Shown here piece after piece: positions 3,457-62,945 of a stretch of 64,000 nt of DNA. Made by a program: the position numbers and the translations under genes. The stretch's first letter is position 1. Every line of letters begins with the position of its first letter. The stretch is taken from NCBI GenBank assembly GCA_963613175.1, contig CAVDXX010000002.1, forward strand, positions 19,005 to 83,004. Direction: 5' to 3'. This DNA comes from a bacterium (GTDB taxonomy: Bacteria; Patescibacteriota; Saccharimonadia; Saccharimonadales; Saccharimonadaceae). Under the pieces are notes generated by a model, which saw only the letters and a list, made by a program, of their open reading frames with translations, searched no databases and was not told the DNA's origin.

Positions 3457-6198
3457 TTATTCGTCGGCTTCTTTAGTGTCTTTTTTACAGGAGCTGATAC
3501 TTGAAATATTCATTTCTCCAGAGGCCGAATAGCCAGCAGAATCAGATACGATGATGCGAGCGGAAGTTTCGGAGCCAGTAAGATTATATATTGCTCCACC
3601 CGAGAGAGATACCCCACCTTTTTCAACGCCATTGATATAAAGCGTCGCACTGGATAAGTCATAGGCCCCCTGAGCGATGTTCGCATAAAGTTTACAGCCC
3701 GAAGTCGAGAGCGAAACTCGTGGTGGTTCATAATCACAAGTATCATTTTTATCACGGTCATACGGTGACGGGACATTGTAAACAGTATTGCCGGTCATCG
3801 GATCAATAGTTTTAGTGACTTCAACTTGAATCTTGTATTCTTCCGGCGTACAAGCCGCAGCCAGTAAGTGATTATAACGATTGAAAGTCAAAGTTTCTTT
3901 CGAGACTCCCGAATTTTTTGCGCCATTATACCAGCTTGGCCAAATGTCCGTCTTACCATTAACGGTCAAAGTCTGAATACCTTCCGGTTTTGTCGGTTCG
4001 TCACCAGACTTCCAACGTCCATCAGCCGCATAAACTTCTTTATGAATACGCTCCATATACTCCGCCACAGTATAGCGCGCTGGATCATGAGTATTAGAAG
4101 TTAGCCCCGAGCCGTCGTGATTACCATTCCAAACCAGAGTCGAAACTGCGGTCGAATAACTCTCCATCAAAGAATCTTTTGTCTCGGCCGAGTTTGTAGT
4201 AGTCGTAGTTCCGGTCTTAGTTGCAGTCCAGACACCAGGAATAACATAACCCGCACTTTGCGAACCGCCAGCGGCATAGATACTGAATCGGGCGCTACCG
4301 TCGCTTAAGATATTCGACAACATATAGGCCACTTGCGGGTCAACAACTTCCGTAGCCTCTGAATCATTCCAAGATTCAATAACTTCGCCAGAAGAGTTCT
4401 TCATTTCGAGAACATAGGAAAGATCACGATAAGAACCACCACGCGCTAAGGAAGCATAAGCATTAGCGTGTTCAACCATTTTTACGCCACAACCCGAACC
4501 GATCGCAATCGAAAGCCCATAGCCATCATTATTAGCACAGTAAGAAGTATCGCCAAGTTTCCGTGCAACCTCAAGAGACTCGTCGATGCCGTTAATATAA
4601 AGCGCTTTAACTGCGGCAATATTTAGAGAATGCCCGAGAGAGAAACGAATCGTCACGTTGCCATAGAAAGTCCCCGTCGCATTCGTAAGCGAACACTTGC
4701 CGCTAGTATAGCCTTTACAATAAGTACTATCGATATTTTCATCTTTCAAAATACTACCAGGACCATAATTCGTGCCTTCGCGTTGCATAAATAATGGTGC
4801 ATAATCAAGAATCGGCTTAATCGTCGAACCCGGCTCAATCGAAGAATCCGTGGTTGCGTTCATTTCACCGTAAGTCGGGTTATTAAAATCAATCGAGCCG
4901 ACCATAGCAATAACTTGCGAAGTTTCGACATCGACAGAAACTAGCGCGAGATCATCACTATTATTTTTATACGTGTGTTTCGCACCAGCAGCAATCGCAT
5001 CTTCGGCAATTTTTTGCGCGCGCAAATCAACAGTAGTTTTAATCGTCCATCCGCCCGAACGCATAGTCTGAATACCGTATTTATCTTCGAGTTGCTGTTT
5101 GACTTCCAACACGAAATGTGGTGCTTGCATATTAGCGTATTGACTCGATTCCGGTTTAATCGTATCAAGAATCGCAACCTCTTTCGCATCACTAGCTTCT
5201 TGTTCGGAAATATACCCCATCGAGACCATGTCGTTCAAGACTTTATGTTGACGTTCGATTAACATATCGTTGCCATATTCATTATACGGATTCAAAACCG
5301 CCGGATTATTCGGAATCGCCGCAAGCAATGCCGATTCTGCTAAAGTCAAATCTTTCGCACTTTTACCGAAATAAGTTTGAGCCGCTGATTCGACCCCATT
5401 TCGTCGACCACCATAGGGAGACTGGTTTAAATACATGGTTAGAATCTGATCTTTTGAATACATTTTTTCCAACTCAACCGCGAGAATTAACTCTTTAATT
5501 TTTCGGGTTAAACCGCCACGGTTTTCGCTCGCAGCTTCGTCGGAGAAATAGACTTGTTTAATTAATTGCTGAGTTAAAGTCGAACCACCCTGAACGCCTT
5601 GCCCGCTCAAAGTTGCGATCGAAGCACGCATCAAAGCTCCAAAATCAACGCCGGCATGATTATAGAAATTTTTATCTTCGATCGCGACGGTCGCCTTATA
5701 CATGTATTCCGAAATATCTTCAGCATCGACCACCAAACGATAGTCTTCGCTGCCGGTATCTTGCCAAAGCACCTCACCGTTGCGGTCGAGATAAGTATTG
5801 ACGGTTTCAGAAATCGACATCTCATCAAGCCGAATCTCGTCCAAATCTTTTTTGTAATATAGAAACAACCCACCAAGGAAAATAATAAAAATCAAAGCGC
5901 AGGCCGCAAGAAACTTCAAAATTTGTTTCTGTCCCGGCCATGAAAACCACCATTTAAACACCCGTTTCGGATGAAGCCGTGCAAAAAACCGTTTTACTGG
6001 TTCTTTTGGTAATTTAGCTAGATCCTCCGCTCGACGACGCGAGTCGGCTTCTCGTTTGGCATGATAATTGTATGCCAAACTAGAATATAAATTCATGTTT
6101 TTTTTCGCAGTTTTAGAGGAGGTTTTCTTGCTTTTCTTCGAATTTTTTGCTCTATTCGATTTAAATGGCAAAATCACCTCTGATTTCTTTTTAGCCAT
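3457..6198 (-). CDS. Class A penicillin-binding protein (glycosyltransferase + transpeptidase) with long C-terminal extension
   Basis: GT51 motifs EDKNFYNHAGVD, GGSTLTQQL, RKIKE. Transpeptidase SIEPGSTIKP. Start placed at MAKKK because TATAAT (6210-6205) lies 6 nt upstream of ATG 6198. Confidence 0.85.
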   Translation of the reverse strand: MAKKKSEVILPFKSNRAKNSKKSKKTSSKTAKKNMNLYSSLAYNYHAKREADSRRRAEDLAKLPKEPVKRFFARLHPKRVFKWWFSWPGQKQILKFLAACALIFIIFLGGLFLYYKKDLDEIRLDEMSISETVNTYLDRNGEVLWQDTGSEDYRLVVDAEDISEYMYKATVAIEDKNFYNHAGVDFGALMRASIATLSGQGVQGGSTLTQQLIKQVYFSDEAASENRGGLTRKIKELILAVELEKMYSKDQILTMYLNQSPYGGRRNGVESAAQTYFGKSAKDLTLAESALLAAIPNNPAVLNPYNEYGNDMLIERQHKVLNDMVSMGYISEQEASDAKEVAILDTIKPESSQYANMQAPHFVLEVKQQLEDKYGIQTMRSGGWTIKTTVDLRAQKIAEDAIAAGAKHTYKNNSDDLALVSVDVETSQVIAMVGSIDFNNPTYGEMNATTDSSIEPGSTIKPILDYAPLFMQREGTNYGPGSILKDENIDSTYCKGYTSGKCSLTNATGTFYGNVTIRFSLGHSLNIAAVKALYINGIDESLEVARKLGDTSYCANNDGYGLSIAIGSGCGVKMVEHANAYASLARGGSYRDLSYVLEMKNSSGEVIESWNDSEATEVVDPQVAYMLSNILSDGSARFSIYAAGGSQSAGYVIPGVWTATKTGTTTTTNSAETKDSLMESYSTAVSTLVWNGNHDGSGLTSNTHDPARYTVAEYMERIHKEVYAADGRWKSGDEPTKPEGIQTLTVNGKTDIWPSWYNGAKNSGVSKETLTFNRYNHLLAAACTPEEYKIQVEVTKTIDPMTGNTVYNVPSPYDRDKNDTCDYEPPRVSLSTSGCKLYANIAQGAYDLSSATLYINGVEKGGVSLSGGAIYNLTGSETSARIIVSDSAGYSASGEMNISSISSCKKDTKEADE

Positions 6199-6260
6199 AC
6201 ATATATTATACATCAAACTAAATAAAAGTCCTAAAGTTTTTTATGTGTTATTATATTAAT

Positions 6261-7901
6261 ATGCGAAAGTTCAAGTTTCGGTCAGTTGTGGCATTGGCAA
6301 ATATGAAATTGTCGGTAAAAACGGCGGCAATTGTTTTGGCGTCATCAACTTTGGCATCGGCGCTGCTGGGGTTGTTCCGCGATCGACTTTTAAATTCTTA
6401 TTATCTCGGAACTTATCCGACAGGAATCGATGCTTATACGGCAGCGTTCACTGTGCCAGATTTTATGTTTTTCATTTTAACTTCTGGAGCTTTGTCAGTT
6501 TCATTTATTCCGGTTTTTAATCAACGTCTTGCGACCGGCAATAAAAAATCAGCGTGGGAACTTTCGTCATCACTTTTGAATTTGTTGGCGATTTTGACTT
6601 TAGTTGCATCAATTTTAATTATGATTTTTACTGATCCGTTGATCCGTTACGTGGTTTCACCAGGGCTCGATGAGTCGGGCATGATTTTAGCAATTAATAT
6701 GACGCGCGTAATCGCAATTAATCCATTTTTGTTTTCGATCGCAACAGTTCTGACTTCGATTCAACAGGCCGTTGGACGGTTTATCTTTTATTCGCTCGCG
6801 CCGGTAATTTATAATATCGGAATTATTATTGGGATTACTTGTTTTACTAATGGAATTAATCTATTCGGCGTACAACTTTTCGAAGGCGGGATTATGGGGG
6901 TCGCAATCGGAGTTGTCCTTGGCGCTATAATGCAATTAATTGTTTCACTAATTGGTTTATTCGGGCTTGGCATGGATTACGATTTCAAAATTAAGTGGCG
7001 TAATCAAGGCTTCCGATCGATTCTGAAACTTTTGCCGGCGCGTTCGCTCGATCAGGGAATTGACTATGTCAATGGGATCGTGAACACGAATTTATCTTCG
7101 CGTATGGGCGCAGGAGCAGTACGTTCGTTTAATCAGGCTTCGAGCCTACATCAGATGCCGGTGAATTTAATCGGTGTGGCGATTTCGACTGCATTTTTTC
7201 CGAAATTGACTGAAGAGCTCGGCGCAGGCGATAAAAAAGAATTTTATCATACCTTTCGACAGGCGTTAAGAATGATTATTTGGATCTCGCTGCCGGTGGC
7301 GATTGTTGCTTTCTTCACGCGAGGTTACGTGACAAGTTTTATTTCTAATATCGGTAATAACGATAGTAACGGGACTATTGCATCAGTGCTCGGCATGCTT
7401 TGTATCGCAATTTTTGCGCGCAGTATTTTTCATATCGCTTCGCGCGGGTTTTATGCCTTTCAAGATACTAAAACACCGTTTTACGTTTCGATTCTAGCAA
7501 TTGGACTGACAATTGTACTTTCGATTTGGTTCTTTATGATCGGATTAGGTGTTGATGGGTTAGGTTTAGCACAATCCATCGGTGCAATTGTCGAGATAAT
7601 AATATTATTGTCAATTTTACAACATCGGTCGGAAAGGGTTCTTTTGAATAAAGATTTTTGGCGAGCACTAGTGCGAATGATTTTCGCTAGCGTAATTGCT
7701 GGCTGCGTAGCATTTTCGATGACAAAATTCATACCGCTGATGGCGACGGATTCATCGCTCGTAATTACCGTTCCGAAGTTCTTGCTAATTTCCGTGGTCT
7801 CTTTTGGTGCATACTTAATAGCGAGTTATTTATTAGATTTGAAAGAGACTAAACCAATCTTTGAATACATTAAGAAAATTCTCTTTAGAAACGCAAAATA
7901 G
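6261..7901 (+). CDS. murJ: Lipid II flippase MurJ/MviN family
   Basis: About 14 predicted TM segments. N-terminal SALLGLFRDRLL typical of MurJ. TGtTATTAT-N6-ATG at 6261. Confidence 0.8.
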   Translation: MRKFKFRSVVALANMKLSVKTAAIVLASSTLASALLGLFRDRLLNSYYLGTYPTGIDAYTAAFTVPDFMFFILTSGALSVSFIPVFNQRLATGNKKSAWELSSSLLNLLAILTLVASILIMIFTDPLIRYVVSPGLDESGMILAINMTRVIAINPFLFSIATVLTSIQQAVGRFIFYSLAPVIYNIGIIIGITCFTNGINLFGVQLFEGGIMGVAIGVVLGAIMQLIVSLIGLFGLGMDYDFKIKWRNQGFRSILKLLPARSLDQGIDYVNGIVNTNLSSRMGAGAVRSFNQASSLHQMPVNLIGVAISTAFFPKLTEELGAGDKKEFYHTFRQALRMIIWISLPVAIVAFFTRGYVTSFISNIGNNDSNGTIASVLGMLCIAIFARSIFHIASRGFYAFQDTKTPFYVSILAIGLTIVLSIWFFMIGLGVDGLGLAQSIGAIVEIIILLSILQHRSERVLLNKDFWRALVRMIFASVIAGCVAFSMTKFIPLMATDSSLVITVPKFLLISVVSFGAYLIASYLLDLKETKPIFEYIKKILFRNAK

Positions 7902-7916
7902 TGTTATAATTAATCC

Positions 7917-8204
7917 ATGGAGATAAAACGCGAGGATATTTTACATTTGGCGAAGTTGTCGAATTTTTCGGTTTCGGACGCAGAGGCAGAAAGTTTGGAG
8001 CGCGATTTAAGTGATATTATTAAATACATTTCTCAACTTGATGAATTAGAAACGGAGAATGTGGAGCCGACCTATCAAGTTTTTGAGATGGAAAATGTGT
8101 GGCGACCGGACGAGGTTTTGGAGCAGGACGCGACGCGAGAAGAATTACTCGCATTGACAGTTGCAGAAAAAGATCATCAAATTAAAGTCCCGAAGGTATT
8201 ATAA
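7917..8204 (+). CDS. gatC: Asp/Glu-tRNA amidotransferase subunit C
   Basis: 95 aa. HLAKLSNFSVSDAEAESLERDLSDIIKYISQLDELETENVEPT. Stop overlaps the gatA start (ATGA). Confidence 0.85.
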   Translation: MEIKREDILHLAKLSNFSVSDAEAESLERDLSDIIKYISQLDELETENVEPTYQVFEMENVWRPDEVLEQDATREELLALTVAEKDHQIKVPKVL

Positions 8205-9739
8205 TGAAAATTGCAAATCAAAAAGTTTCGGCGGTAAGTTTAGTAAAAGATGCGCTAGAAAAGGCGAAAAAGTTTGAAGATTATCATATTTTTACATTTT
8301 TGAACGAGGAGAAGGCCTTAGAAAAGGCGCACGAAATCGACCAGCGAATTAAAAATGGGGAAGAAGTAGGTCGGCTCGCGGGCGTGCCGTATGCCTTAAA
8401 AGATAATTTTCTCTCACCCGAGGGCGAGACAACCGCTTCGGCACATATTTTAGAAGGTTTTACTTCGCCGATTACGGCGACGACGGTGGAGCGACTCGAA
8501 GCAGAGGGTGCGATTATGATTGGACGGACGAATATGGATGCGTTTGCACACGGGTCGTCGACTGAAAGTTCGTATTTTGGACCGACTTTGAATGCTCACG
8601 ATCGCGAACGTGTAGCGGGCGGGTCGTCTGGCGGATCGGCAGTGGTGGTGGCGCTCGACATTGTGGAATTTGCGACTGGAACGGACACGGGTGGTTCGAT
8701 TCGACAGCCGGCTTCGTTTAATGGTGTCTATGGGCTAAAACCGACGTATGGGTGTAATTCGCGATATGGAGTCGTGGCGATGGCATCATCGACGGACTGT
8801 GTTGGCTTCTTTACTAAAACGCTGGAAGATATGGATCTTTTGATGTCGATTTCGAGTGGTAAAGACCCGAAAGATATGACGACTTTGGATAATTATTACA
8901 ATGGTGAATTTGAAGCATCTTGTCTCGGACACGCTCAAGGCCGCTCGGCCAAGCCTATGGTCCTCGACAAGGTGCTTTCAAATTCTGATAAAAAAACATC
9001 TCACTGCCCGACGGGTGATGCCACTTGGGGGTCCCCCATCGAGCTTGATGAGAATGGGGGAAAAGTGGCGGCAGGACCTGTCGGGAAGAAATGTATCGGC
9101 ATTATCAAAGATTTTGATAATGATTCAGTTGATGTGGAGATTCGGGAGGCGCTGAAACGGAAGTGTGAGTTGTTGGAATCGAAGGGACATGAGATTGTGG
9201 AGTTGTCGATGCCGGCTTTGAAATATGCGTTGGCGGCGTATTATATTATTGTGCCGGCGGAAGTGGCGTCGAATTTATCGCGACACGACGGCGTAAGATA
9301 TGGTTTTCGGTCGAAAAAGTCGGAAGATTTGGAAAAGTTGTATTCCGAGACGCGCTCGGAAGGCTTTATGCCGGAAAACAAGCGCCGAATTATGATCGGG
9401 AACTTTGTGTTGTCGAGCGGATTTTATGATGCGTATTTTTTGAAGGCGGCGAAAGCGCGAACCTTAATCATTGAAGAGTATAATAAAGCTTTTGAAAAAT
9501 GCGATTTTATCTTAACACCAGTAGCGCCAAATCCAGCATTTAAACTCGGTGAAAAAGTGAATGATCCGGTTGCAATGTATCTCGAAGATGCAATGAGCGT
9601 GCCGCTTAATCTCGCGGGAGTGCCGGGACTTACCGTACCGGCAGGAAAAACAAAAGCTGGATTGCCGATCGGTTTACAATTAATCGGTCCGCGCCGAAGT
9701 GATAAAAGTTTAATTATGTTCGCAGGGGAGCTTGAATAA
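8204..9739 (+). CDS. gatA: Asp/Glu-tRNA amidotransferase subunit A (amidase family) with a ~59-codon in-frame insertion
   Basis: Amidase signature GGSSGGSAVVVA...GTDTGGSIRQPASFNGVYGLKPTYG. C-terminal LPIGLQLIG. Confidence 0.9.
   Translation: MKIANQKVSAVSLVKDALEKAKKFEDYHIFTFLNEEKALEKAHEIDQRIKNGEEVGRLAGVPYALKDNFLSPEGETTASAHILEGFTSPITATTVERLEAEGAIMIGRTNMDAFAHGSSTESSYFGPTLNAHDRERVAGGSSGGSAVVVALDIVEFATGTDTGGSIRQPASFNGVYGLKPTYGCNSRYGVVAMASSTDCVGFFTKTLEDMDLLMSISSGKDPKDMTTLDNYYNGEFEASCLGHAQGRSAKPMVLDKVLSNSDKKTSHCPTGDATWGSPIELDENGGKVAAGPVGKKCIGIIKDFDNDSVDVEIREALKRKCELLESKGHEIVELSMPALKYALAAYYIIVPAEVASNLSRHDGVRYGFRSKKSEDLEKLYSETRSEGFMPENKRRIMIGNFVLSSGFYDAYFLKAAKARTLIIEEYNKAFEKCDFILTPVAPNPAFKLGEKVNDPVAMYLEDAMSVPLNLAGVPGLTVPAGKTKAGLPIGLQLIGPRRSDKSLIMFAGELE
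8912..9088. repeat. GC-rich nested-palindrome element inside gatA
   Basis: Stem 8912-8924 pairs with 8966-8979 around a 41-nt core (8925-8965). That core is 38/41 identical to 57183-57223. A second imperfect palindrome spans 9004-9088. Confidence 0.75.
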
Positions 9740-10158
9740 TGGACGGGGGTGTTATTACTTTTATTCTGGCGATTTTAATTGTAGCAGTGTTCGTTTTTTT
9801 GGCAATTCTTTTGACCGGAAAACGCGGTTATACTTTTAATCGCGAAGTTTACCAGTCGCGATTTTTGGCGATTGAAAATAAATTGAAGGAAAATAATCCC
9901 GCGACTTTTATGACCACAATTATTGAAGCAGATAAGTTGCTTGATAAGGCGCTGATTGAGATGGGTGTGCCGGGAAAAACAATGGGGGATCGTTTGAAAA
10001 AATCCGGCGATAAGTTTTCGAATCTGAATTCAGTTTGGCGCGTGCATAAAATGCGTAATGCGATTGCGCACGAATCGGGTTACGAAGTGAGTTATCGACA
10101 AGCGTTTAATGCCTTAACGGTTTACAAACAAGCGTTAAAAGATTTAGGAGCAATTTAA
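9739..10158 (+). CDS. Small N-terminally anchored protein with HEPN/DUF4145-like RNxxxH motif
   Basis: One N-terminal TM segment (ITFILAILIVAVFVFLAILL). All-helical C-terminal part with VWRVHKMRNAIAHE. 1-nt overlaps with the gatA stop and the gatB start. Confidence 0.5.
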   Translation: MDGGVITFILAILIVAVFVFLAILLTGKRGYTFNREVYQSRFLAIENKLKENNPATFMTTIIEADKLLDKALIEMGVPGKTMGDRLKKSGDKFSNLNSVWRVHKMRNAIAHESGYEVSYRQAFNALTVYKQALKDLGAI

Positions 10159-11705
10159 TGAAATATTTACCGACTATCGGCATCGAATGCCATGTTCAGT
10201 TATCAACTAAAACTAAATTATTTTCGGAGGTCGACAACGACGCGCGAGGGAAGGAGCCGAACTCATGCGTATCGCCGGTGGATTATGCATTGCCGGGGAT
10301 GTTGCCGCGGCTAAATGGTGAGGCGATAAAATTCGCGGTGCGAGCGGGGCGGGCGATGAACTGCGAGATTAACGCCGAGTCGCGGTTTGACCGTAAACAT
10401 TATTTTTATCCGGATTCGCCCAAAGGCTATCAGATTACACAATTTTACCACCCGATTATTGGGGCGGGATTTGTGGAGCTGCCATCAGGGACAAAAATCC
10501 GAATCGAACATGCGCACCTCGAGGGCGACGCAGGGAAATTGACCCATTTCGACACTTATTCTTTGGTAGATTTAAATCGCGTAGATACGCCATTGATTGA
10601 AATTGTCTCGATGCCGGACATCCATTCCGCGAAAGATGCGCACGATTATTGTAAGGAATTGTGGCGGCTGATGCGGTATGCTAAGGTGACTTATGGGGAT
10701 TTGTATAACGGAAACATGCGGTTTGATGTTAACGTGTCGCTAGCGCCGGAAGGATCGAGCGAGCTCGGCACACGAGCGGAAGTGAAAAATTTGAATTCTT
10801 TTAGGTCGGTGGAGCGGGCAGTAGAATATGAAATTAAGCGCCAAACAAAAATCTTAGAGTCAGGCGAAAAAGTGATTCAAGAAACTCGTGGTTGGAGTGA
10901 TGCTGCTGGTAAAACTACAGGACAGCGTTCGAAAGAGGAAGCGAAAGATTATCGCTATATGCCGGAGCCGGATTTGCCACCGCTGAATTTGTCTCGTGAA
11001 TTTATCGACGAACAACTCGCTGATTTTCCGCTAATGCCGGCGGATTATCGACGGGAGTTTAAGGACGTGATTGCTGGTGATATTTTGGAGATTTTGCTGG
11101 ATTATCCAGAGTTGATGGAAAAGTTAGCGGAAGTGGCTGACGCACTCCATCTCGGACACGCTCAAGGCCGCGAGTGCTCGCAATCAGAGCAAGTGCCTTC
11201 GGGGGACGGGTCGCTTCAGCCCGTCGTCACGGGTGAAGCGCCCTCATCCTCGGTCGTAACCTCCGGAAGCCCCCGAAAGCACTTGCTTCTGATTGCTAAC
11301 TTGTTCACCTCTGTTTTACTGGCGGAGGAAAAGTCGGCGGAGTTTCTGAACGATCTGCCGAGTGCGGATGCCCTGAATACCTTGGCAGAGATGAATGCGA
11401 AGAAAGAACTTAGTTCAACGGCGACAAAAGAAGTGTTTTTGCGCTTATTTGATCCGCAGATGAAAACGCGAGGCGTGGAGCAAATTGCGAAAGAGCTGGG
11501 GTTGATTCAGGAAAATGACCTTGGGGCGCTCGAAAAAATTGTGGATGCGGTGCTAGCAAAACCAGAGACAAAGCAGGCGCAAGATGATTTTCGGGCCGGG
11601 TCGGAAAAAGTGCTTGGGTTCTTGGTTGGGCAAGTGATGAAGGAGTCGAAAGGCAAGGCTAACCCGTCCAGCGTGCAAGAAATTCTGCGCAAAAAATTAT
11701 CATAA
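10158..11705 (+). CDS. gatB: Asp/Glu-tRNA amidotransferase subunit B with in-frame insertion
   Basis: GIECHVQL, DRKHYFYPD, HLEGDAGK, NLNSFRSVERA, YRYMPEPDLPP. GatB/YqeY-like tail. Confidence 0.9.
   Translation: MKYLPTIGIECHVQLSTKTKLFSEVDNDARGKEPNSCVSPVDYALPGMLPRLNGEAIKFAVRAGRAMNCEINAESRFDRKHYFYPDSPKGYQITQFYHPIIGAGFVELPSGTKIRIEHAHLEGDAGKLTHFDTYSLVDLNRVDTPLIEIVSMPDIHSAKDAHDYCKELWRLMRYAKVTYGDLYNGNMRFDVNVSLAPEGSSELGTRAEVKNLNSFRSVERAVEYEIKRQTKILESGEKVIQETRGWSDAAGKTTGQRSKEEAKDYRYMPEPDLPPLNLSREFIDEQLADFPLMPADYRREFKDVIAGDILEILLDYPELMEKLAEVADALHLGHAQGRECSQSEQVPSGDGSLQPVVTGEAPSSSVVTSGSPRKHLLLIANLFTSVLLAEEKSAEFLNDLPSADALNTLAEMNAKKELSSTATKEVFLRLFDPQMKTRGVEQIAKELGLIQENDLGALEKIVDAVLAKPETKQAQDDFRAGSEKVLGFLVGQVMKESKGKANPSSVQEILRKKLS
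11142..11296. repeat. GC-rich nested-palindrome element inside gatB
   Basis: 22-mer tctcggacacgctcaaggccgc is identical to gatA 8923-8944. Imperfect inverted repeat of about 25 bp, 11180-11205 against 11270-11296. Inner hairpin 11213-11239. Confidence 0.75.
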
Positions 11706-21755: not shown

Positions 21756-21768
21756 TATAATAGAAAAA

Positions 21769-21860
21769 TAATATCAAGAAGGAACGAGGGATCGGCCCAA
21801 CGACTTCCTGCCAACCTAGCGATGCCAAGGTGGTAAATCCGACCAGAAAGGAAAGATATG
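21769..21860 (+). promoter_or_regulatory. SAM-I (S-box) clan riboswitch, probably translational
   Basis: UAUCAAGAAGG..GAGGGAUCGGCCCAACGACUUCCUGCCAACC..CCAAGGUGGUAAAUCC..AGAAAGGAAAGAUAUG matches the S-box core (GAGGGA/GGCCC/GCAACC-like/AAGGUG.UAAAUCC). The P1 3' strand overlaps the SD and ATG 21858. TATAAT at 21756-21761. Confidence 0.8.
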
Positions 21861-22820
21861 TTCTATCGAACCGCGGAGAGCGTTTCTCCGAAACACCCAG
21901 ATAAACTTTGCGACCAAATCAGCGATGCGATTTTGGATGCGTATTTAAAAGAAGACCCGAACGCACGAGTCGCGGCGGAAGCTTGCGGTGGGCACGGAGT
22001 AGTGTTTGTGACCGGCGAAATCACATCGACAGCGACGGATATTGATATCCCGGCAATCGTGAGACGAATTGCGGGGGAAGTTGAAGTACATACGAAAATC
22101 GTGGAACAATCTCCCGAAATTGCGCAGGGCGTCGATACCGGGGGCGCGGGCGATCAGGGAATCATGATTGGGTTTGCGTGCGATGAAACTCCGGAACTTT
22201 TGCCACGCGAAGTCGTGTTGTCTCGTCGGCTAAATCAATATATTTACGAAAAGTTCCCGTTTGACGGTAAAACACAGGTAACGATTGCACCGGACGGTTC
22301 GATTGATTCGATTGTGGCGAGTTTTCAAAATGCGCCGAAAGACGAGCTTACGGAATTAGTGCAGGGATTTATTGCGGAAAATAACTTGTCCGGCAAGTTG
22401 GAACTGCATATAAATCCAGCCGGAGACTGGAATCAAGGCGGTTTTGACGCCGATACGGGGCTGACCGGGCGAAAGTTGATCGTGGACAATTACGGCCCGC
22501 GAGTGGCGATTGGCGGAGGTTGTTATTCAGGCAAGGACCCGTCGAAAGTCGATCGCTCGGCGGCGTATATGGCACGAAAAGTGGCAGTGGATTATTTGAG
22601 AGAGCGCGGGGCGCATGAAGTGTTGGTGCGACTGGCTTATGCAATCGGATACGCCGAGCCATTAGAAAAAACTGTGATCATTGATGGTCAGCCGGAAGAA
22701 ATCGAAGGCTACGATTTAACACCGAACGGAATTATTGAATTTTTGGACCTAAAACGCCCGATTTACGAACAAACCGCCCGCTATGGCCATTACGGCGAGG
22801 GGTTTGGGTGGGATAAATAA
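21858..22820 (+). CDS. metK: S-adenosylmethionine synthetase, compact form (320 aa)
   Basis: HPDKLCDQISDAILDA, GAGDQGIMIGFA, GLTGRKLIVD, GKDPSKVDRSAAYMAR. Confidence 0.88.
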   Translation: MFYRTAESVSPKHPDKLCDQISDAILDAYLKEDPNARVAAEACGGHGVVFVTGEITSTATDIDIPAIVRRIAGEVEVHTKIVEQSPEIAQGVDTGGAGDQGIMIGFACDETPELLPREVVLSRRLNQYIYEKFPFDGKTQVTIAPDGSIDSIVASFQNAPKDELTELVQGFIAENNLSGKLELHINPAGDWNQGGFDADTGLTGRKLIVDNYGPRVAIGGGCYSGKDPSKVDRSAAYMARKVAVDYLRERGAHEVLVRLAYAIGYAEPLEKTVIIDGQPEEIEGYDLTPNGIIEFLDLKRPIYEQTARYGHYGEGFGWDK

Positions 22821-48718: not shown

Positions 48719-48882
48719 GTCCTAAAAGGTTTCACTGGCGGACAATCTCGCCAGCCAAAGAAAAATTCGAGGAGCCTAGTCAAGACGAGCAAGGGCCCGT
48801 CCCCCGACGCAGTCCTGATTAGGCGACGAGGATTTTTCTTTGCGCGCAGTCGAGAACGTCCGCCGGTAAAATCTTTTAGGGC
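48719..48882. repeat. 25-bp imperfect inverted repeat with ~115-nt GC-rich spacer
   Basis: gtcctaaaaggtttcactggcggac (48719-48743) against gtccgccggtaaaatcttttagggc (48858-48882): 21/25 complementary. Confidence 0.7.
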
Positions 48883-57139: not shown

Positions 57140-57236
57140 AAAAACCGAACACTTGGGCGAAAGCAATCAGAAAATGCCTTTTTCGGACACACTCAAGGCC
57201 GTTCGGCCAAGCTTATGGTCCTCAAAAGGCATTTTC
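57140..57236. repeat. Intergenic copy of the palindromic element (perfect 13-bp stem + 41-nt core)
   Basis: aaaaaccgaaca 12-mer at 57140-57151. Stem gaaaatgcctttt (57170-57182) pairs with aaaaggcattttc (57224-57236). Core 57183-57223. Confidence 0.8.
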
Positions 57237-57296
57237 GATTGCAAAACATTGCGCAAGATATGATATAATTAGCAGATAAAAGGAGAGGTAAAAAAA

Positions 57297-58271
57297 ATGG
57301 AAGAATTTGATGTGTTTCTCTGGGCGAACGAGATTGACGAGGTAAAAAATAATGTTTCCGCGGAGTTGTTTTTGTTTAATAAAAACTATACGCCCTTTAA
57401 GATTAAGTATTCGGATAAGCTGACAGGAGCGGTGAAGGCAATGTTCATGCAAGAAGCAGTGAATTTTGTGAACGAAGAAGCTGAAAAGGGTTTGGAATGT
57501 CGCGAATACGAGAAGGCGGACGGCGAGGAGAAGGTGATTTATAAAACTTCCCTGTCGAAAGTCGGACGAGCGGAAACTTTGATTCATCTGATCGAAAATG
57601 AATATAAAGATATTGACTATTTTTCAGAGAATGAACATGATTTTAAGAAGGTGAAGGGTATCATTGCAAAATTCACTTACCCTGGCGGCGAAGACGGGAC
57701 GAAGACTTTTTACATCGCAAAATTGTTGCCAGCGTCGGGGGCGCTAAAAGGTGCAACCTCTTGGGAAATTAAGGGTGAGAGTTTCGAACCGTTTTCGGCG
57801 GAAATCGCGCTAAAAATGCCGGAAGATAACCAAGTGGCGATTGTGGATAAGACGATTGTTGTGTTCAATCAGGCGAAATTCGAGAATTTGTTTCAATACG
57901 ATTACAAGTCGCAGGTGATTGCCGAAGCGAAGGCAAAAGAATTGTGTGAAAAATATAAATTGTCATTTGCGGAGGGGCTGACGCTAGACGCTCTACTCGC
58001 GGACAAGAAGCCGATTTTGAAAAAAGTGCAGGCGATGGATATTGCCGAAGAGATGCCGCAAGAAAAATTATTGGATTATGCGGATGAAATGCAACTGGAG
58101 TTGATGACGGACGACGAAGGCTCGATTATTATTATGGACGATAAAGATTTGACTATGTTTGTAAATTTGTTGAACGAAGATTATTATGTCTCGCCGGTGA
58201 ATGGACGGCGATACGAGATAAAATCAAAAAAGTTGCTCAGTGAGCCGGATGGTGAGCCACCAAGAGGGTGA
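57297..58271 (+). CDS. DUF4868 / KwaB-like protein (Kiwa defence component-like), solitary
   Basis: 324 aa. Overall pattern and length recalled for DUF4868, e.g. ...IVVFNQAKFENLFQYDY.... SD AAGGAGAGG. Assignment from memory only. Confidence 0.4.
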   Translation: MEEFDVFLWANEIDEVKNNVSAELFLFNKNYTPFKIKYSDKLTGAVKAMFMQEAVNFVNEEAEKGLECREYEKADGEEKVIYKTSLSKVGRAETLIHLIENEYKDIDYFSENEHDFKKVKGIIAKFTYPGGEDGTKTFYIAKLLPASGALKGATSWEIKGESFEPFSAEIALKMPEDNQVAIVDKTIVVFNQAKFENLFQYDYKSQVIAEAKAKELCEKYKLSFAEGLTLDALLADKKPILKKVQAMDIAEEMPQEKLLDYADEMQLELMTDDEGSIIIMDDKDLTMFVNLLNEDYYVSPVNGRRYEIKSKKLLSEPDGEPPRG

Positions 58272-60932: not shown

Positions 60933-62945
60933 ATGTATTACGAGGTGATTCCGGAAGGAAAAGTTGGGAGGTTGACTTATCATAGCGAGGTTGGTTCCCT
61001 GGTGTCGGGGCAGGTTGTCTTAGTGTCGCTCGGACGACGGACTGTGCCGGGGGTGGTGGTGAAAAAAGTTGCTCAACCGAATTTTCAGACCAAGCCGATT
61101 GTGAAAATTTTGTATACAAAGCCGTTGCCGCGGCAGCTTTTGGCGGTGGTGCGGTTTTTGCGCGCATATTATCTGACGGCTGAGGGAGAGGGGGTCTCTT
61201 TGATTTTGCCGAATGGGGTTGAGAAACAGAGACGGAAGGCAAAAACCGAACAAATGTTCGGGAACAACTTATCTCTGGACGGGTCCTGTCGTCGCCTCCC
61301 CCCCAAAAATTTTTGTCAAGACAAAACATTTTTGGGGTCCCCTCCGGCGACACCACCCGTCCAGGTCGATATTCCGCTTAACCCTGCTCAAAAAATGGCC
61401 CTAGAAGGCCTGCAGAAGGCTCCAGGAGCGACGAAACTGCTGTTTGGCTTAACTGGTAGTGGTAAAACGAACATCTACCTTAAAATGGCGCTAAACGCGT
61501 TTAAACGGCAAAAATCTACGATCGTTTTAGTGCCGGAAATTGCTTTGACAGGGCAGTTGGTACGGGTTTTTCGGCAGGTTTTTGGCGAAAATGTGGTGTT
61601 AATTCATTCAAAACAAACAGAGGCGGAACGACACCGAATTTTTGATTCCCTGCTTTTTAGCGAAGGGCCGAAAATTGTAATTGGTCCGCGTTCGGCGTTG
61701 TTTGCGCCCCTGTCGAATTTGGGACTGATCGTGGTTGATGAGGAGCACGAAACGAGCTATTATCAAGAAAATGCGCCGAAATATTCGGCAATACGAGTGG
61801 CGAGTTTTTTGGCGCAGGAATTGAAAATTGATTGTATTTTAGGCTCGGCAACGCCGGAAATTGCGGATTTTTATCTGGCTTCGAAACTGGGATCGGTGGT
61901 AAAACTAACAGAGAAAGCGAAAGCGACGGCGATCAAGCCTGAGGTAAAAATTGTCGATTTTAAAAATCGCGATAATTTCCGAAAAAATCGGTATTTTTCG
62001 GGGGTATTGCTCGCGGCGATAGAGAGGAATCTAGAACAGGAGCAGCAAACGCTGATTTTTCATAACCGACGGGGGTCGGCGCCGCTGACAATTTGTGAAA
62101 ATTGCGGCGAAGAGATCCTCTGTCCGAATTGTTTTTTGCCGCTGACCTTGCACGCTGATAATTATGATTTAGTTTGCCATACCTGTGGTTTTTCGGAAAA
62201 AGTCCCCTCGTGTTGTCCAAAATGCGGGACGCCCGGGATGGTACATAAGGGGTTTGGGACAAAATTATTAGAGACGGAGCTGAAAAAATTGTTTCCGAAG
62301 GCGAAGGTGCGGCGGTTTGATGCGGATAATAAGAAGGAGGAACGATTAGAGGCGGTTTATGATGCGGTACGAGAAGGCGAAATTGATATTTTAGTGGGGA
62401 CGCAGACGATTGCGAAGGGACTGGACTTGCCGAAACTCGCAACGGTTGGGGTCGTTCAGGCTGATGCAGGGCTATCTTTGCCGGATTTTATGGCGGAAGA
62501 GCGGGTTTTTCAACTTTTGACACAGGTGATGGGTCGAGTGGGTCGGGGACATTCGGAAATTGCGGAAATGATCGTGCAGACTTTTCGGCCGGAGCATCCG
62601 GTGCTGAAATTTGCGCTGGCCGAAGATTATCAGGGATTTTATCAGTATTTAATAAGGCGGCGTCAGAAATCCGGTTTCCCGCCGTTTCGGTTCGTGATGA
62701 AACTGGAAATTACACTAAAAACAGAGGCGGTAGTACTGAAAAAAGTGCGGACGACGGTGCAAGAATTGTCGGCTAATACCGATTTAATTGTTTCCCCGCC
62801 CCAGCCGGCTTTTCACGAGCGAACGGCGCGAGGATTTACTTGGCAAATTATCGTGCGATCGCAGTCGCGAGCGAAATTATTGAAAGCCTGCGAAGGACTA
62901 GACAAGAATTTCAAAGTAACGCTTGATCCGCCAGGACTACTGTAA
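60933..62945 (+). CDS. priA: Primosomal protein N' (replication restart helicase PriA) with palindromic in-frame insertion
   Basis: GLTGSGKTN, VVDEEHE, Cys4 zinc cluster CENCGEEILCPNC...CHTCG...CPKCG, GTQTIAKGLD, GRVGRG. Confidence 0.88.
   Translation: MYYEVIPEGKVGRLTYHSEVGSLVSGQVVLVSLGRRTVPGVVVKKVAQPNFQTKPIVKILYTKPLPRQLLAVVRFLRAYYLTAEGEGVSLILPNGVEKQRRKAKTEQMFGNNLSLDGSCRRLPPKNFCQDKTFLGSPPATPPVQVDIPLNPAQKMALEGLQKAPGATKLLFGLTGSGKTNIYLKMALNAFKRQKSTIVLVPEIALTGQLVRVFRQVFGENVVLIHSKQTEAERHRIFDSLLFSEGPKIVIGPRSALFAPLSNLGLIVVDEEHETSYYQENAPKYSAIRVASFLAQELKIDCILGSATPEIADFYLASKLGSVVKLTEKAKATAIKPEVKIVDFKNRDNFRKNRYFSGVLLAAIERNLEQEQQTLIFHNRRGSAPLTICENCGEEILCPNCFLPLTLHADNYDLVCHTCGFSEKVPSCCPKCGTPGMVHKGFGTKLLETELKKLFPKAKVRRFDADNKKEERLEAVYDAVREGEIDILVGTQTIAKGLDLPKLATVGVVQADAGLSLPDFMAEERVFQLLTQVMGRVGRGHSEIAEMIVQTFRPEHPVLKFALAEDYQGFYQYLIRRRQKSGFPPFRFVMKLEITLKTEAVVLKKVRTTVQELSANTDLIVSPPQPAFHERTARGFTWQIIVRSQSRAKLLKACEGLDKNFKVTLDPPGLL
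61241..61362. repeat. Palindromic element inside priA
   Basis: aaaaaccgaaca 12-mer at 61241-61252. ccgaaca-aa-tgttcgg hairpin. Imperfect inverted repeat 61277-61315 against 61322-61362. Confidence 0.7.

Follow-up and report, generated by a model that had tools for sequence, protein, structure and literature searches.

We analysed a window of 64,000 nucleotides (nt) from a Nanosyncoccus-like genome of the Saccharibacteria (TM7; Saccharimonadota; contig CAVDXX010000002.1), in which gatA and gatB, coding for two subunits of the same essential enzyme, lie in the order gatC-gatA-orf-gatB (Table 1), an order that is conserved in relatives. A GC-rich palindromic segment inside gatB, and its kin at other loci, are the subject of this study. 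The segment adds 120–141 nt (40–47 codons) with a GC content of 0.63–0.66, compared to ~0.45 in its surroundings, and the gatB open reading frame (ORF) was continuous in every lineage compared. An earlier reading made from the sequence alone (hereafter the sequence-only reading) had overestimated the insert at ~155 nt; the hotspot that holds it measures 228 nt in the window, versus 87 nt in L123 and 108 nt in L118.

A protein search identified the GatB proteins of Candidatus Saccharibacteria as the closest ones, and the relatives found by DNA were Nanosyncoccus-like metagenome-assembled genomes (MAGs) from rumen, gut and mouth, whose loci were compared as stretches of 8–10 kb. GatB homologues carry the Pfam domains GatB_N and GatB_Yqey, and GatB chains of the PDB align solely to residues 2–301 and 405–512 of the window protein. 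In an AlphaFold model, residues 333–369 form a coil between two helices with a predicted local distance difference test score (pLDDT) below 50; on this model the insert is a disordered loop.

Table 1 Features of the gat locus and of hairpins in the window, followed by gatB hotspot states and remnants in relatives (positions refer to the window).
Feature	Position or locus	Strand	Remarks
gatC	7917–8204		upstream of gatA
gatA	8204–9739
Complete core-1 hairpin in gatA	8910–8981	+	core 8925–8965; arms 8910–8924, 8966–8981
Core-3, third GC-rich hairpin, in gatA	9007–9085	+
139-aa ORF	9739–10158		between gatA and gatB
gatB ORF	10158–11705	+	515 aa; host gene, insert within helical domain
GCACTC, 5' half of the 6-bp stem closing the truncated core-1	11142–11147	+	from the fold
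Truncated core-1, first 20 nt of the 41-nt module	11152–11171	+	TCGGACACGCTCAAGGCCGC; read GHAQGR; module consensus drawn from 76 copies
GAGTGC, complement of 11142–11147	11172–11177	+
5' arm of core-2 hairpin	11180–11205	+	GCAATCAGAGCAAGTGCCTTCGGGGG; codons SQSEQVPSGD; from the fold
Core-2 apical module, with inner hairpin 11213–11239	11206–11269	+	second dispersed GC-rich family
3' arm of core-2 hairpin	11270–11296	+	CCCCCGAAAGCACTTGCTTCTGATTGC; codons PRKHLLLIA; AAAGCAC...TTGC part is native gatB
Insert-spanning GatB peptide stretches			LHLGHAQGRECSQSEQ... and LHLGHAQGRECSQSEQVPSGDGSLQPVVTGEAPSSSVVTSGSPR
SAM-I riboswitch	21768–21862	+	Rfam RF00162, 59 bits
Intergenic hairpin	48756–48842		31-bp arms, GC-rich centre
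Complete intergenic core-1 hairpin	57163–57242	+	core 57183–57223; arms resemble gatB 5' arm
Conserved ~330-aa ORF	57297–58271
Long GC-rich hairpin CTGGACGGGTCCTGTCGTCG.../...CGGCGACACCACCCGTCCAG	61275–61364		inside 670-aa ORF 60933–62945; 98% conserved in L107
gatB hotspot, 87 nt	L123		empty allele
gatB hotspot, 108 nt	L118		deletion remnant
gatB hotspot, 156 nt	L121, L108, L013, L092, L157, L158		core-1 only
gatB hotspot, 177 nt	L122		core-2 only
gatB hotspot, 195 nt	L159		core-2 reverse-complemented
gatB hotspot, 219, 228 (window), 249, 261 nt			mosaics
Decay or deletion remnant	L109/L119 gatA		PEHTQGYSAG
Decay or deletion remnant	L125 ligA		core deleted between GGAC and GTCC
Decay or deletion remnant	P0014-17		collapsed arms
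Decay or deletion remnant	L118 gatB
Decay remnant	L157		5/41 nt changed, two break the inner helix

The segment proved to be strongly structured. The minimum-free-energy fold of 11142–11300 reached −84 kcal/mol (z = −7.3 against shuffles; z = −5.3 and −5.8 for the core-1 copies in gatA and between genes, respectively), and contained both the two arms and the inner hairpin that the sequence-only reading had pointed out. The 22-mer from which that reading had started was also recovered: TCTCGGACACGCTCAAGGCCGC occurs exactly at 8923–8944 in gatA and at 11150–11171 in gatB and nowhere else in the window, is read as LGHAQGR in each gene's own frame according to the ORF translations, and has an intergenic copy with three mismatches at 57181–57202, while 100 dinucleotide shuffles yielded no match at all. 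Ahead of the intergenic copy stands the string GCAATCAGA...TGCCTT...CGG (57163–57186), as the sequence-only reading had noted. The 22-mer combines 2 nt of stem with no more than the first 20 of the 41 nt of a module that we call core-1. The proposal that gatA and gatB each carry a copy therefore needs division: gatA has the full hairpin, whereas in gatB the 5'-most 20 nt of core-1 are joined to a hairpin that belongs to a second family. With a covariance model of the full core-1 hairpin, the gatA copy scored 83.5 bits (E = 5e-22) and the intergenic copy 89.9 bits (E = 7e-24), but the gatB fragment 12.4 bits (E = 0.6), and a search of the window with this type of model and filters off found only these two full copies. 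Judged by sequence, the gatB segment is a composite in which a truncated core-1 is fused to a core-2 hairpin.

Both halves of this composite bear marks of rearrangement. The GAGTGC that closes the truncated core-1 differs by four substitutions within 8 nt from TCGTCTTC or GCGTCTTC of relatives (L120, L119, L055, L109), and these changes, which create complementarity to the upstream GCACTC, look like the signature of a template switch. In the core-2 half, the sequence-only reading had described an inserted palindrome; a palindrome it is, but one of its arms is native gatB and not inserted. The 3'-arm codons P372–A380 (...KHLLLIA) are homologous to KNVKLMS / KHITMIA of insert-free GatB and sit in a predicted helix (residues 372–389, pLDDT ~86), whereas the 5' arm is an inverted copy of these native codons and is missing from the empty alleles L123 and P0054. 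The core-1 fragment of L120 ends at nearly the same point as that of the window (23 nt versus 20 nt), and the core-2 half of L119 is identical to the window at 75/75 nt, with a flanking synonymous identity of only 0.56; the window allele therefore looks like a recombinant of L120-like and L119-like alleles.

We then compared the gatB site among relatives. GatB ranged from 468 to 526 aa among proteins 78–99% identical, with all length variation falling between LLDYPxLM and NLFTSVLL, and many of the 120 nearest GatB proteins carried no insert. The alleles observed (Table 1) differed in length by multiples of three in every case, and the insert boundaries varied between them. The comparison of presence and absence that the sequence-only reading had proposed revealed a polymorphic site, the three lineages closest at gatB carrying 228, 108 and 219 nt. 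L118 and L065, whose flanking synonymous identities to the window (0.73 and 0.71) mark them as the closest relatives, are in different hotspot states, indicating that the site turns over faster than the gene diverges. L118 was rejected as an empty site, since it keeps the last ~13 nt of core-2, and L123 and P0054 were used instead. In L159, P0097 and P0116, core-2 lies reverse-complemented and in frame within gatB; in P0036, P0049 and P0050, the frame changes inside core-2 and then returns while the nucleotides stay recognisably related, so that the shared feature is the nucleotides and not the peptide. Relatives thus did not all carry the segment, nor was its conservation confined to the protein, a pattern that would have indicated an ordinary lineage-specific loop.

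Core-1 was found to be widely dispersed. A genome scan with its exact first 19 nt, one genome per species, returned at least 117 loci, and in the ~70 TM7 loci among the matches listed the 19-mer always continued into TCGGACACRCTCAAGGCCGYTCGGCCRAGCYTAYGGTCCTC; the other matches, in high-GC genomes and lacking any continuation into the rest of the core, were set aside as chance. At least 76 core-1 copies were collected from TM7 genome loci, with at least 7 in each carrier genome. About two thirds of the copies (~50/76) lie inside ORFs that are 150 aa or longer, among them gatA, gatB and ligA, where they are read in three sense frames (LGHAQGRSAKPTVLD in 22, SDTLKAARPSLRSS in 15 and RTHSRPFGQAYGPQ in 3) and one antisense frame (EDRKLGRTALSVSE in 10). 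The two antisense frames with stop codons were never used in genic copies. The sequence-only reading had suggested an element that tolerates, or is selected for, an open frame; as stop-containing frames were never seen inside genes, the first half stands, and openness is best read as a survival filter. A neighbour-ORF scan placed the remaining 26 copies between ORFs, and no pair of ORFs around them resembled the halves of a split gene; the copies in L002 and L114, for which the ORFs were listed, lie between dusB-like and murD-like genes. The copy in L074 is flanked by two large antisense ORFs.

An ungapped alignment of 61 distinct copies defined the module. Information content was 1.8–2.0 bits per position in the core, ~0.9 in a 6-bp pyrimidine/purine proximal stem and ~0 in the arms beyond 6 bp, which nevertheless remained paired: the basal stem differs in sequence between loci and keeps its complementarity. 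Taken together, the 14-bp basal stem and the overlying GGAC/GUCC helix, between which lies a TC/TC mismatch, were 88% paired in these 61 copies; 328 double-sided changes were counted over the whole tested structure, and none of 500 shuffles reached this level. The inner helix GGCC/GGCC was replaced by a compensatory GGGC/GCCC in four copies, one of them a gatB orthologue retrieved through its protein. Furthermore, positions R9 and Y20 of the core covary (A-T in 42 copies, G-C in 17, G-T in 2, A-C in 0; for example 8933/8944 and 57191/57202 in the window), and the close orthologues L090 and L093 differ at these two core positions only.

The arms are less strictly private to each locus than the alignment alone would suggest. 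Three copies of one MAG (L034, L060 and L091) share arms of 24–30 nt at different loci, outside which each copy has an additional, private inverted repeat, and the arms of L043 resemble the L042 type. The notion that stems are unique to each locus was softened on this account; arms can, to judge from these sequences, sometimes travel with the core. Orthologues of the intergenic window copy lie upstream of the same ~330-aa ORF in L042, L066 and L105. In the window this copy sits ~50–75 nt upstream of the ORF, just before a predicted −10 box (TATGATATAAT).

The second family shows the same habits. By BLAST, the stretch 11201–11275 also occurs at non-gatB loci, twice in L062 and further in L075 and L077, and in more divergent form in L076, L115 and L117. 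A further 31 metagenome loci, each with its own arms and together using three frames or orientations, brought core-2 to more than 35 copies overall. Core-2 measures ~72 nt; TCGG(G)GAC at its start and CC-TC at its end are features it has in common with core-1, and the two probably form one superfamily. Core-3, next to the core-1 hairpin of gatA, is exactly reverse-complemented in L065 (1320–1397) and L009 (1838–1912), and the ORF stays open whichever way the hairpin lies; the two readings are HCPTGDATWGSPIELDENGGKVAAGPVG and HCPTGPAATFPPFSSSSMGGPQVASPVG. The gatA 3' arm AAAGTGGCGGCAGGACCCGTCGGG also occurs in L053, which is nearly empty at this site, pointing to a native arm there as well. Similarly, one arm in ligA contains the native CTGAAGT and the other its complement, with the native side varying between lineages. 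The ligA hotspot (site set L022, L047, L083, L090, L093, L095, L124, L125 and P0121-P0240) lies between NIPLK and EVEVRGE; proteins of TM7 relatives have 655–658 aa when it is empty and 679–713 aa when it is filled. Core-1, other GC-rich inserts (P0172, P0200) and deletion remnants (P0159) were all seen at this hotspot.

Two more hairpins of the window were observed (Table 1). The long one inside the 670-aa ORF may represent a fourth module family, and no relatives of the intergenic one with 31-bp arms were seen among the fetched loci.

These results suggest, with a probability of roughly 0.7, that rearrangement has made the gatB segment an in-frame mosaic of two families of small GC-rich hairpin DNA repeats, which populate genomes of Nanosyncoccus-like Saccharibacteria, and that this mosaic is translated through. 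The repeats are dispersed, are used in several frames, form composites, are polymorphic at hotspots, have a native arm, flip in place and are conserved above the synonymous level. The sequence-only reading had argued for a spreading element and against a random indel, and a polymorphic site, a core read in several frames and conservation exceeding that of silent sites bear this out at the level of nucleotides. Each repeat consists of a conserved apical module, which in core-1 is the 41 nt with the 6-bp pyrimidine/purine proximal stem, on a basal stem of 12–27 bp whose sequence varies by locus. In the mechanism we propose, the repeats would be copied to new sites at the DNA level, sometimes arms included. 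Within genes they would persist only where a loop is permissive and one of the four stop-free frames is used, and would there be translated through as a disordered loop. A resident palindrome would then rearrange by recombination between arms and, presumably, by hairpin-mediated template switching: an arm could be extended by inverted copying of native flank, the apical module could flip, and modules could nest, duplicate, be truncated or be deleted. A putative trans-acting factor would recognise the conserved module, which would therefore be kept. New copies would arise, presumably, by this DNA-level copying.

Several results weigh against this reading, and several speak for a rival in which the modules are functional sites of the cell, bound or processed in a structure-specific way on one DNA strand or on RNA, with every copy under purifying selection; such sites could serve a domesticated hairpin-acting enzyme, take part in replication or its priming, organise the chromosome or help to process mRNA. 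Between lineages, core-1 at the orthologous gatB site is 88–100% identical (mean 97%), compared to 70–73% in the arms, and over the 130 codons next to it the synonymous third positions reach ~40% (saturation); in ligA the values are 95% for the core and 44–46% for the arms. Retrieval by an exact 19-mer inflates the conservation of core-1 positions 1–19 and so affects this estimate, but copies retrieved through their proteins differed at 0, 1, 2 (compensatory) and 5 of 41 nt, a divergence still far below the synonymous level. Orthologous copies differ by 1.9 nt and paralogues by 3.4 nt, within one genome as between genomes; since orthologues are closer than paralogues, each copy is old and individually conserved, with long vertical persistence of locus-specific variants across species. 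Gene conversion was rejected as the cause of core conservation, paralogues within a genome being no more alike than those of different genomes. Such individual conservation is unlike junk DNA and hints at function or enforcement, and the compensatory GGGC/GCCC variant and the R9:Y20 covariation speak the same way, the latter pair fitting no nested helix of our hairpin model. Genic antisense copies are equally well conserved, which likewise favours the rival. The core also has a preferred strand, with its '+' sense on the G-rich strand of the locus in 70 of the 76 copies and in 24 of the 26 intergenic ones and a sense to antisense ratio of ~4:1 in genes, although this bias mixes the effects of open-frame availability (three sense frames, one antisense), of the orientation of genes and of replication skew. 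A strand-specific role of the modules, at the RNA level or in single-stranded DNA, may follow. Finally, neither a transposase nor a direct target-site duplication nor an autonomous parent element came to light for these repeats in the loci compared, so that we infer their mobility from their distribution only, and all data are metagenome-assembled sequences.

We nevertheless regard the functional-site rival as improbable. Copies are decayed or deleted in essential genes whose ORF is retained, many close relatives have no copy at the same position, and the 20-nt gatB fragment has stayed intact though unable to form the full structure. On the core '+' strand, stem mismatches are A.C in 54 cases versus G.T in 27, alike in genic sense and intergenic copies; this 2:1 excess of A.C over G.U is the opposite of what a sense-strand RNA helix would leave, and such a helix was not supported. 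A bolder form of the idea, which we likewise regard as improbable, joins it to the mosaic: the modules would be a class of strand-biased nucleic-acid sites not described before that each copy must keep, acting as hairpins on single-stranded DNA or RNA, bound by a putative dedicated Saccharibacteria factor and written through the coding sequence of essential enzymes, and a hairpin once nucleated would grow by backward copying of neighbouring codons, making new protein segments from the gene's own antisense.

Removal of the segment before or during translation, as a small intron, an intein-like or a bypass element, would leave a GatB protein without the insert; the great stability of the hairpin, a nucleotide conservation in essential genes such as splicing competence would impose and the analogy with byp elements, which ribosomes bypass, could be cited for it. 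We consider this very unlikely, because all ~50 genic copies lie in stop-free frames with a continuous ORF and lengths that are multiples of three, none of which removal would require. Moreover, the neighbour-ORF scan showed no gene halves around the 26 copies outside long ORFs, intergenic copies are conserved too, neither an intein nor a group I or II intron would fit into modules of 41–72 nt, and the insert boundaries differ between alleles. An Rfam scan of the window at gathering thresholds returned only two tRNAs and the SAM (S-adenosylmethionine) riboswitch of Table 1, and scans of all three copies at E-values up to 10 returned chance matches only. That the insert is an ordinary lineage-specific surface loop of GatB under protein-level selection, sharing the 22-mer by chance or by local gene conversion between gatA and gatB, agrees with its place in a poorly conserved part of the helical domain and with its predicted disorder; this explanation was refuted by the same nucleotides standing in four frames, in unrelated genes and in intergenic DNA, by the frame-switched and reverse-complemented alleles and by the shuffles, and we give it next to no weight. 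An equally negligible chance attaches to chimeric MAG sequence from assembly or binning: several carrier MAGs bear labels that are probably wrong (Bulleidia sp., Clostridiales bacterium) and every source is metagenomic, but dozens of independent assemblies (ENA, NCBI, JGI, Logan) show the same architectures again, with intact ORFs and conserved gene order. A scan of viral contigs with the core gave no matches, and hence no sign of a phage vector.

Some further observations concern the neighbourhood of the gat genes. The 139-aa ORF before gatB has no Pfam match, overlaps the gatA stop with its start and the gatB start with its stop, and is kept in every relative, at the same position in L118-L123. 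In L119, gatB and fusA are separated by an insertion (5058–6441) of two genes, one with a CdiA_C toxin domain and one of the DUF2268 type. L001, L009, L039 and other loci labelled Bulleidia sp., Clostridiales bacterium or bacterium carry Saccharibacteria-type gatCAB; their binning or labelling is probably wrong.

Palindromic repeats that lie in frame within housekeeping genes have been regarded mostly as a peculiarity of Rickettsia, and a literature search on palindromic, in-frame or miniature inverted-repeat transposable element (MITE) repeats in Saccharibacteria or Patescibacteria found no papers in the collection searched. Their independent occurrence in an ultra-small epibiotic lineage of the candidate phyla radiation (CPR) thus links the phenomenon to reduced, host-dependent genomes. 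The gatB, gatA and ligA hotspots provide a natural series of empty, single, nested, flipped, truncated and deleted alleles, and suggest a route to new protein sequence in which an antisense copy of a gene's own codons joins its reading frame. We find the near-invariant 41-nt module amid saturated silent sites the most interesting result, and it keeps the functional-site explanation alive. Such inserts also inflate and fragment CPR protein families, and may mislead alignments and phylogenies of GatB and LigA.

Among known systems, the closest are the Rickettsia palindromic elements (RPE-1 to RPE-10). These repeats of ~100–150 bp are palindromic and dispersed over a reduced, host-dependent genome; a considerable fraction of them lie in frame in unrelated housekeeping ORFs, where they were judged compatible with the protein fold, and their transposition mechanism is unknown (PMC10969869). 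The TM7 repeats are likewise dispersed hairpins (fold z from −5.3 to −7.3), with about two thirds of the core-1 copies in frame in unrelated ORFs that their sequences indicate to be undisrupted. The host, however, is a member of the Saccharimonadota, and the repeats are likened to the RPEs by their lifestyle and their effect on proteins and not by comparison with RPE consensus sequences. Here only the apical 41–72 nt are conserved, on a basal stem that is specific to the locus and partly made of host-gene codons; several families nest at one hotspot, the apical module flips in place, and the core is ~97% identical where synonymous sites are saturated. MITEs are short, non-coding, hairpin-forming, multi-copy and non-autonomous elements that can create in-frame fusions (PMC10969869). 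The repeats described here are also short, hairpin-forming and multi-copy, but MITEs are defined by common terminal inverted repeats and direct target-site duplications, whereas here the arms differ by locus, with common arms in some sublineages only. No direct repeats bounded the hairpin when filled and empty gatB, gatA and ligA sites were compared; the flank is duplicated in inverted form instead.

Repetitive extragenic palindromes (REPs) and the REPINs they form are short imperfect palindromes recognised as hairpins, long-lived and vertically inherited at orthologous positions, and are thought to be maintained by RAYT, a single-copy domesticated HUH (Y1) enzyme. They are extragenic and carry a conserved GTAG, and their entire palindrome is conserved, whereas two thirds of the copies here are intragenic. 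IS200/IS605-type elements have strand-specific hairpins with an orientation bias relative to replication; in the core-1 copies, the lean towards the G-rich strand (70 of 76) is confounded by skew, gene orientation and the availability of open frames. The GC clusters of yeast mitochondria and the byp elements are mobile GC-rich palindromic modules of small AT-rich genomes that also enter protein-coding genes; ribosomes skip the byp elements of Magnusiomyces mitochondria, and these elements can lie out of frame, whereas the genic copies here always retain an open frame. Template-switch mutagenesis at quasi-palindromes and the inversion of hairpin loops (the Ripley model, the E. coli thyA hotspot, small inversions in plastids) would explain the diverging but complementary arms, the GAGTGC cluster, the inverted flank copies and the loop flips; being a mutational process and not an element family, it leaves apical conservation and arrival at new loci unexplained. 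By their defining features, and matching no Rfam family, the TM7 repeats are not members of the RPEs, MITEs or REPs; by analogy, they are best regarded as a counterpart of the RPEs in another lineage.

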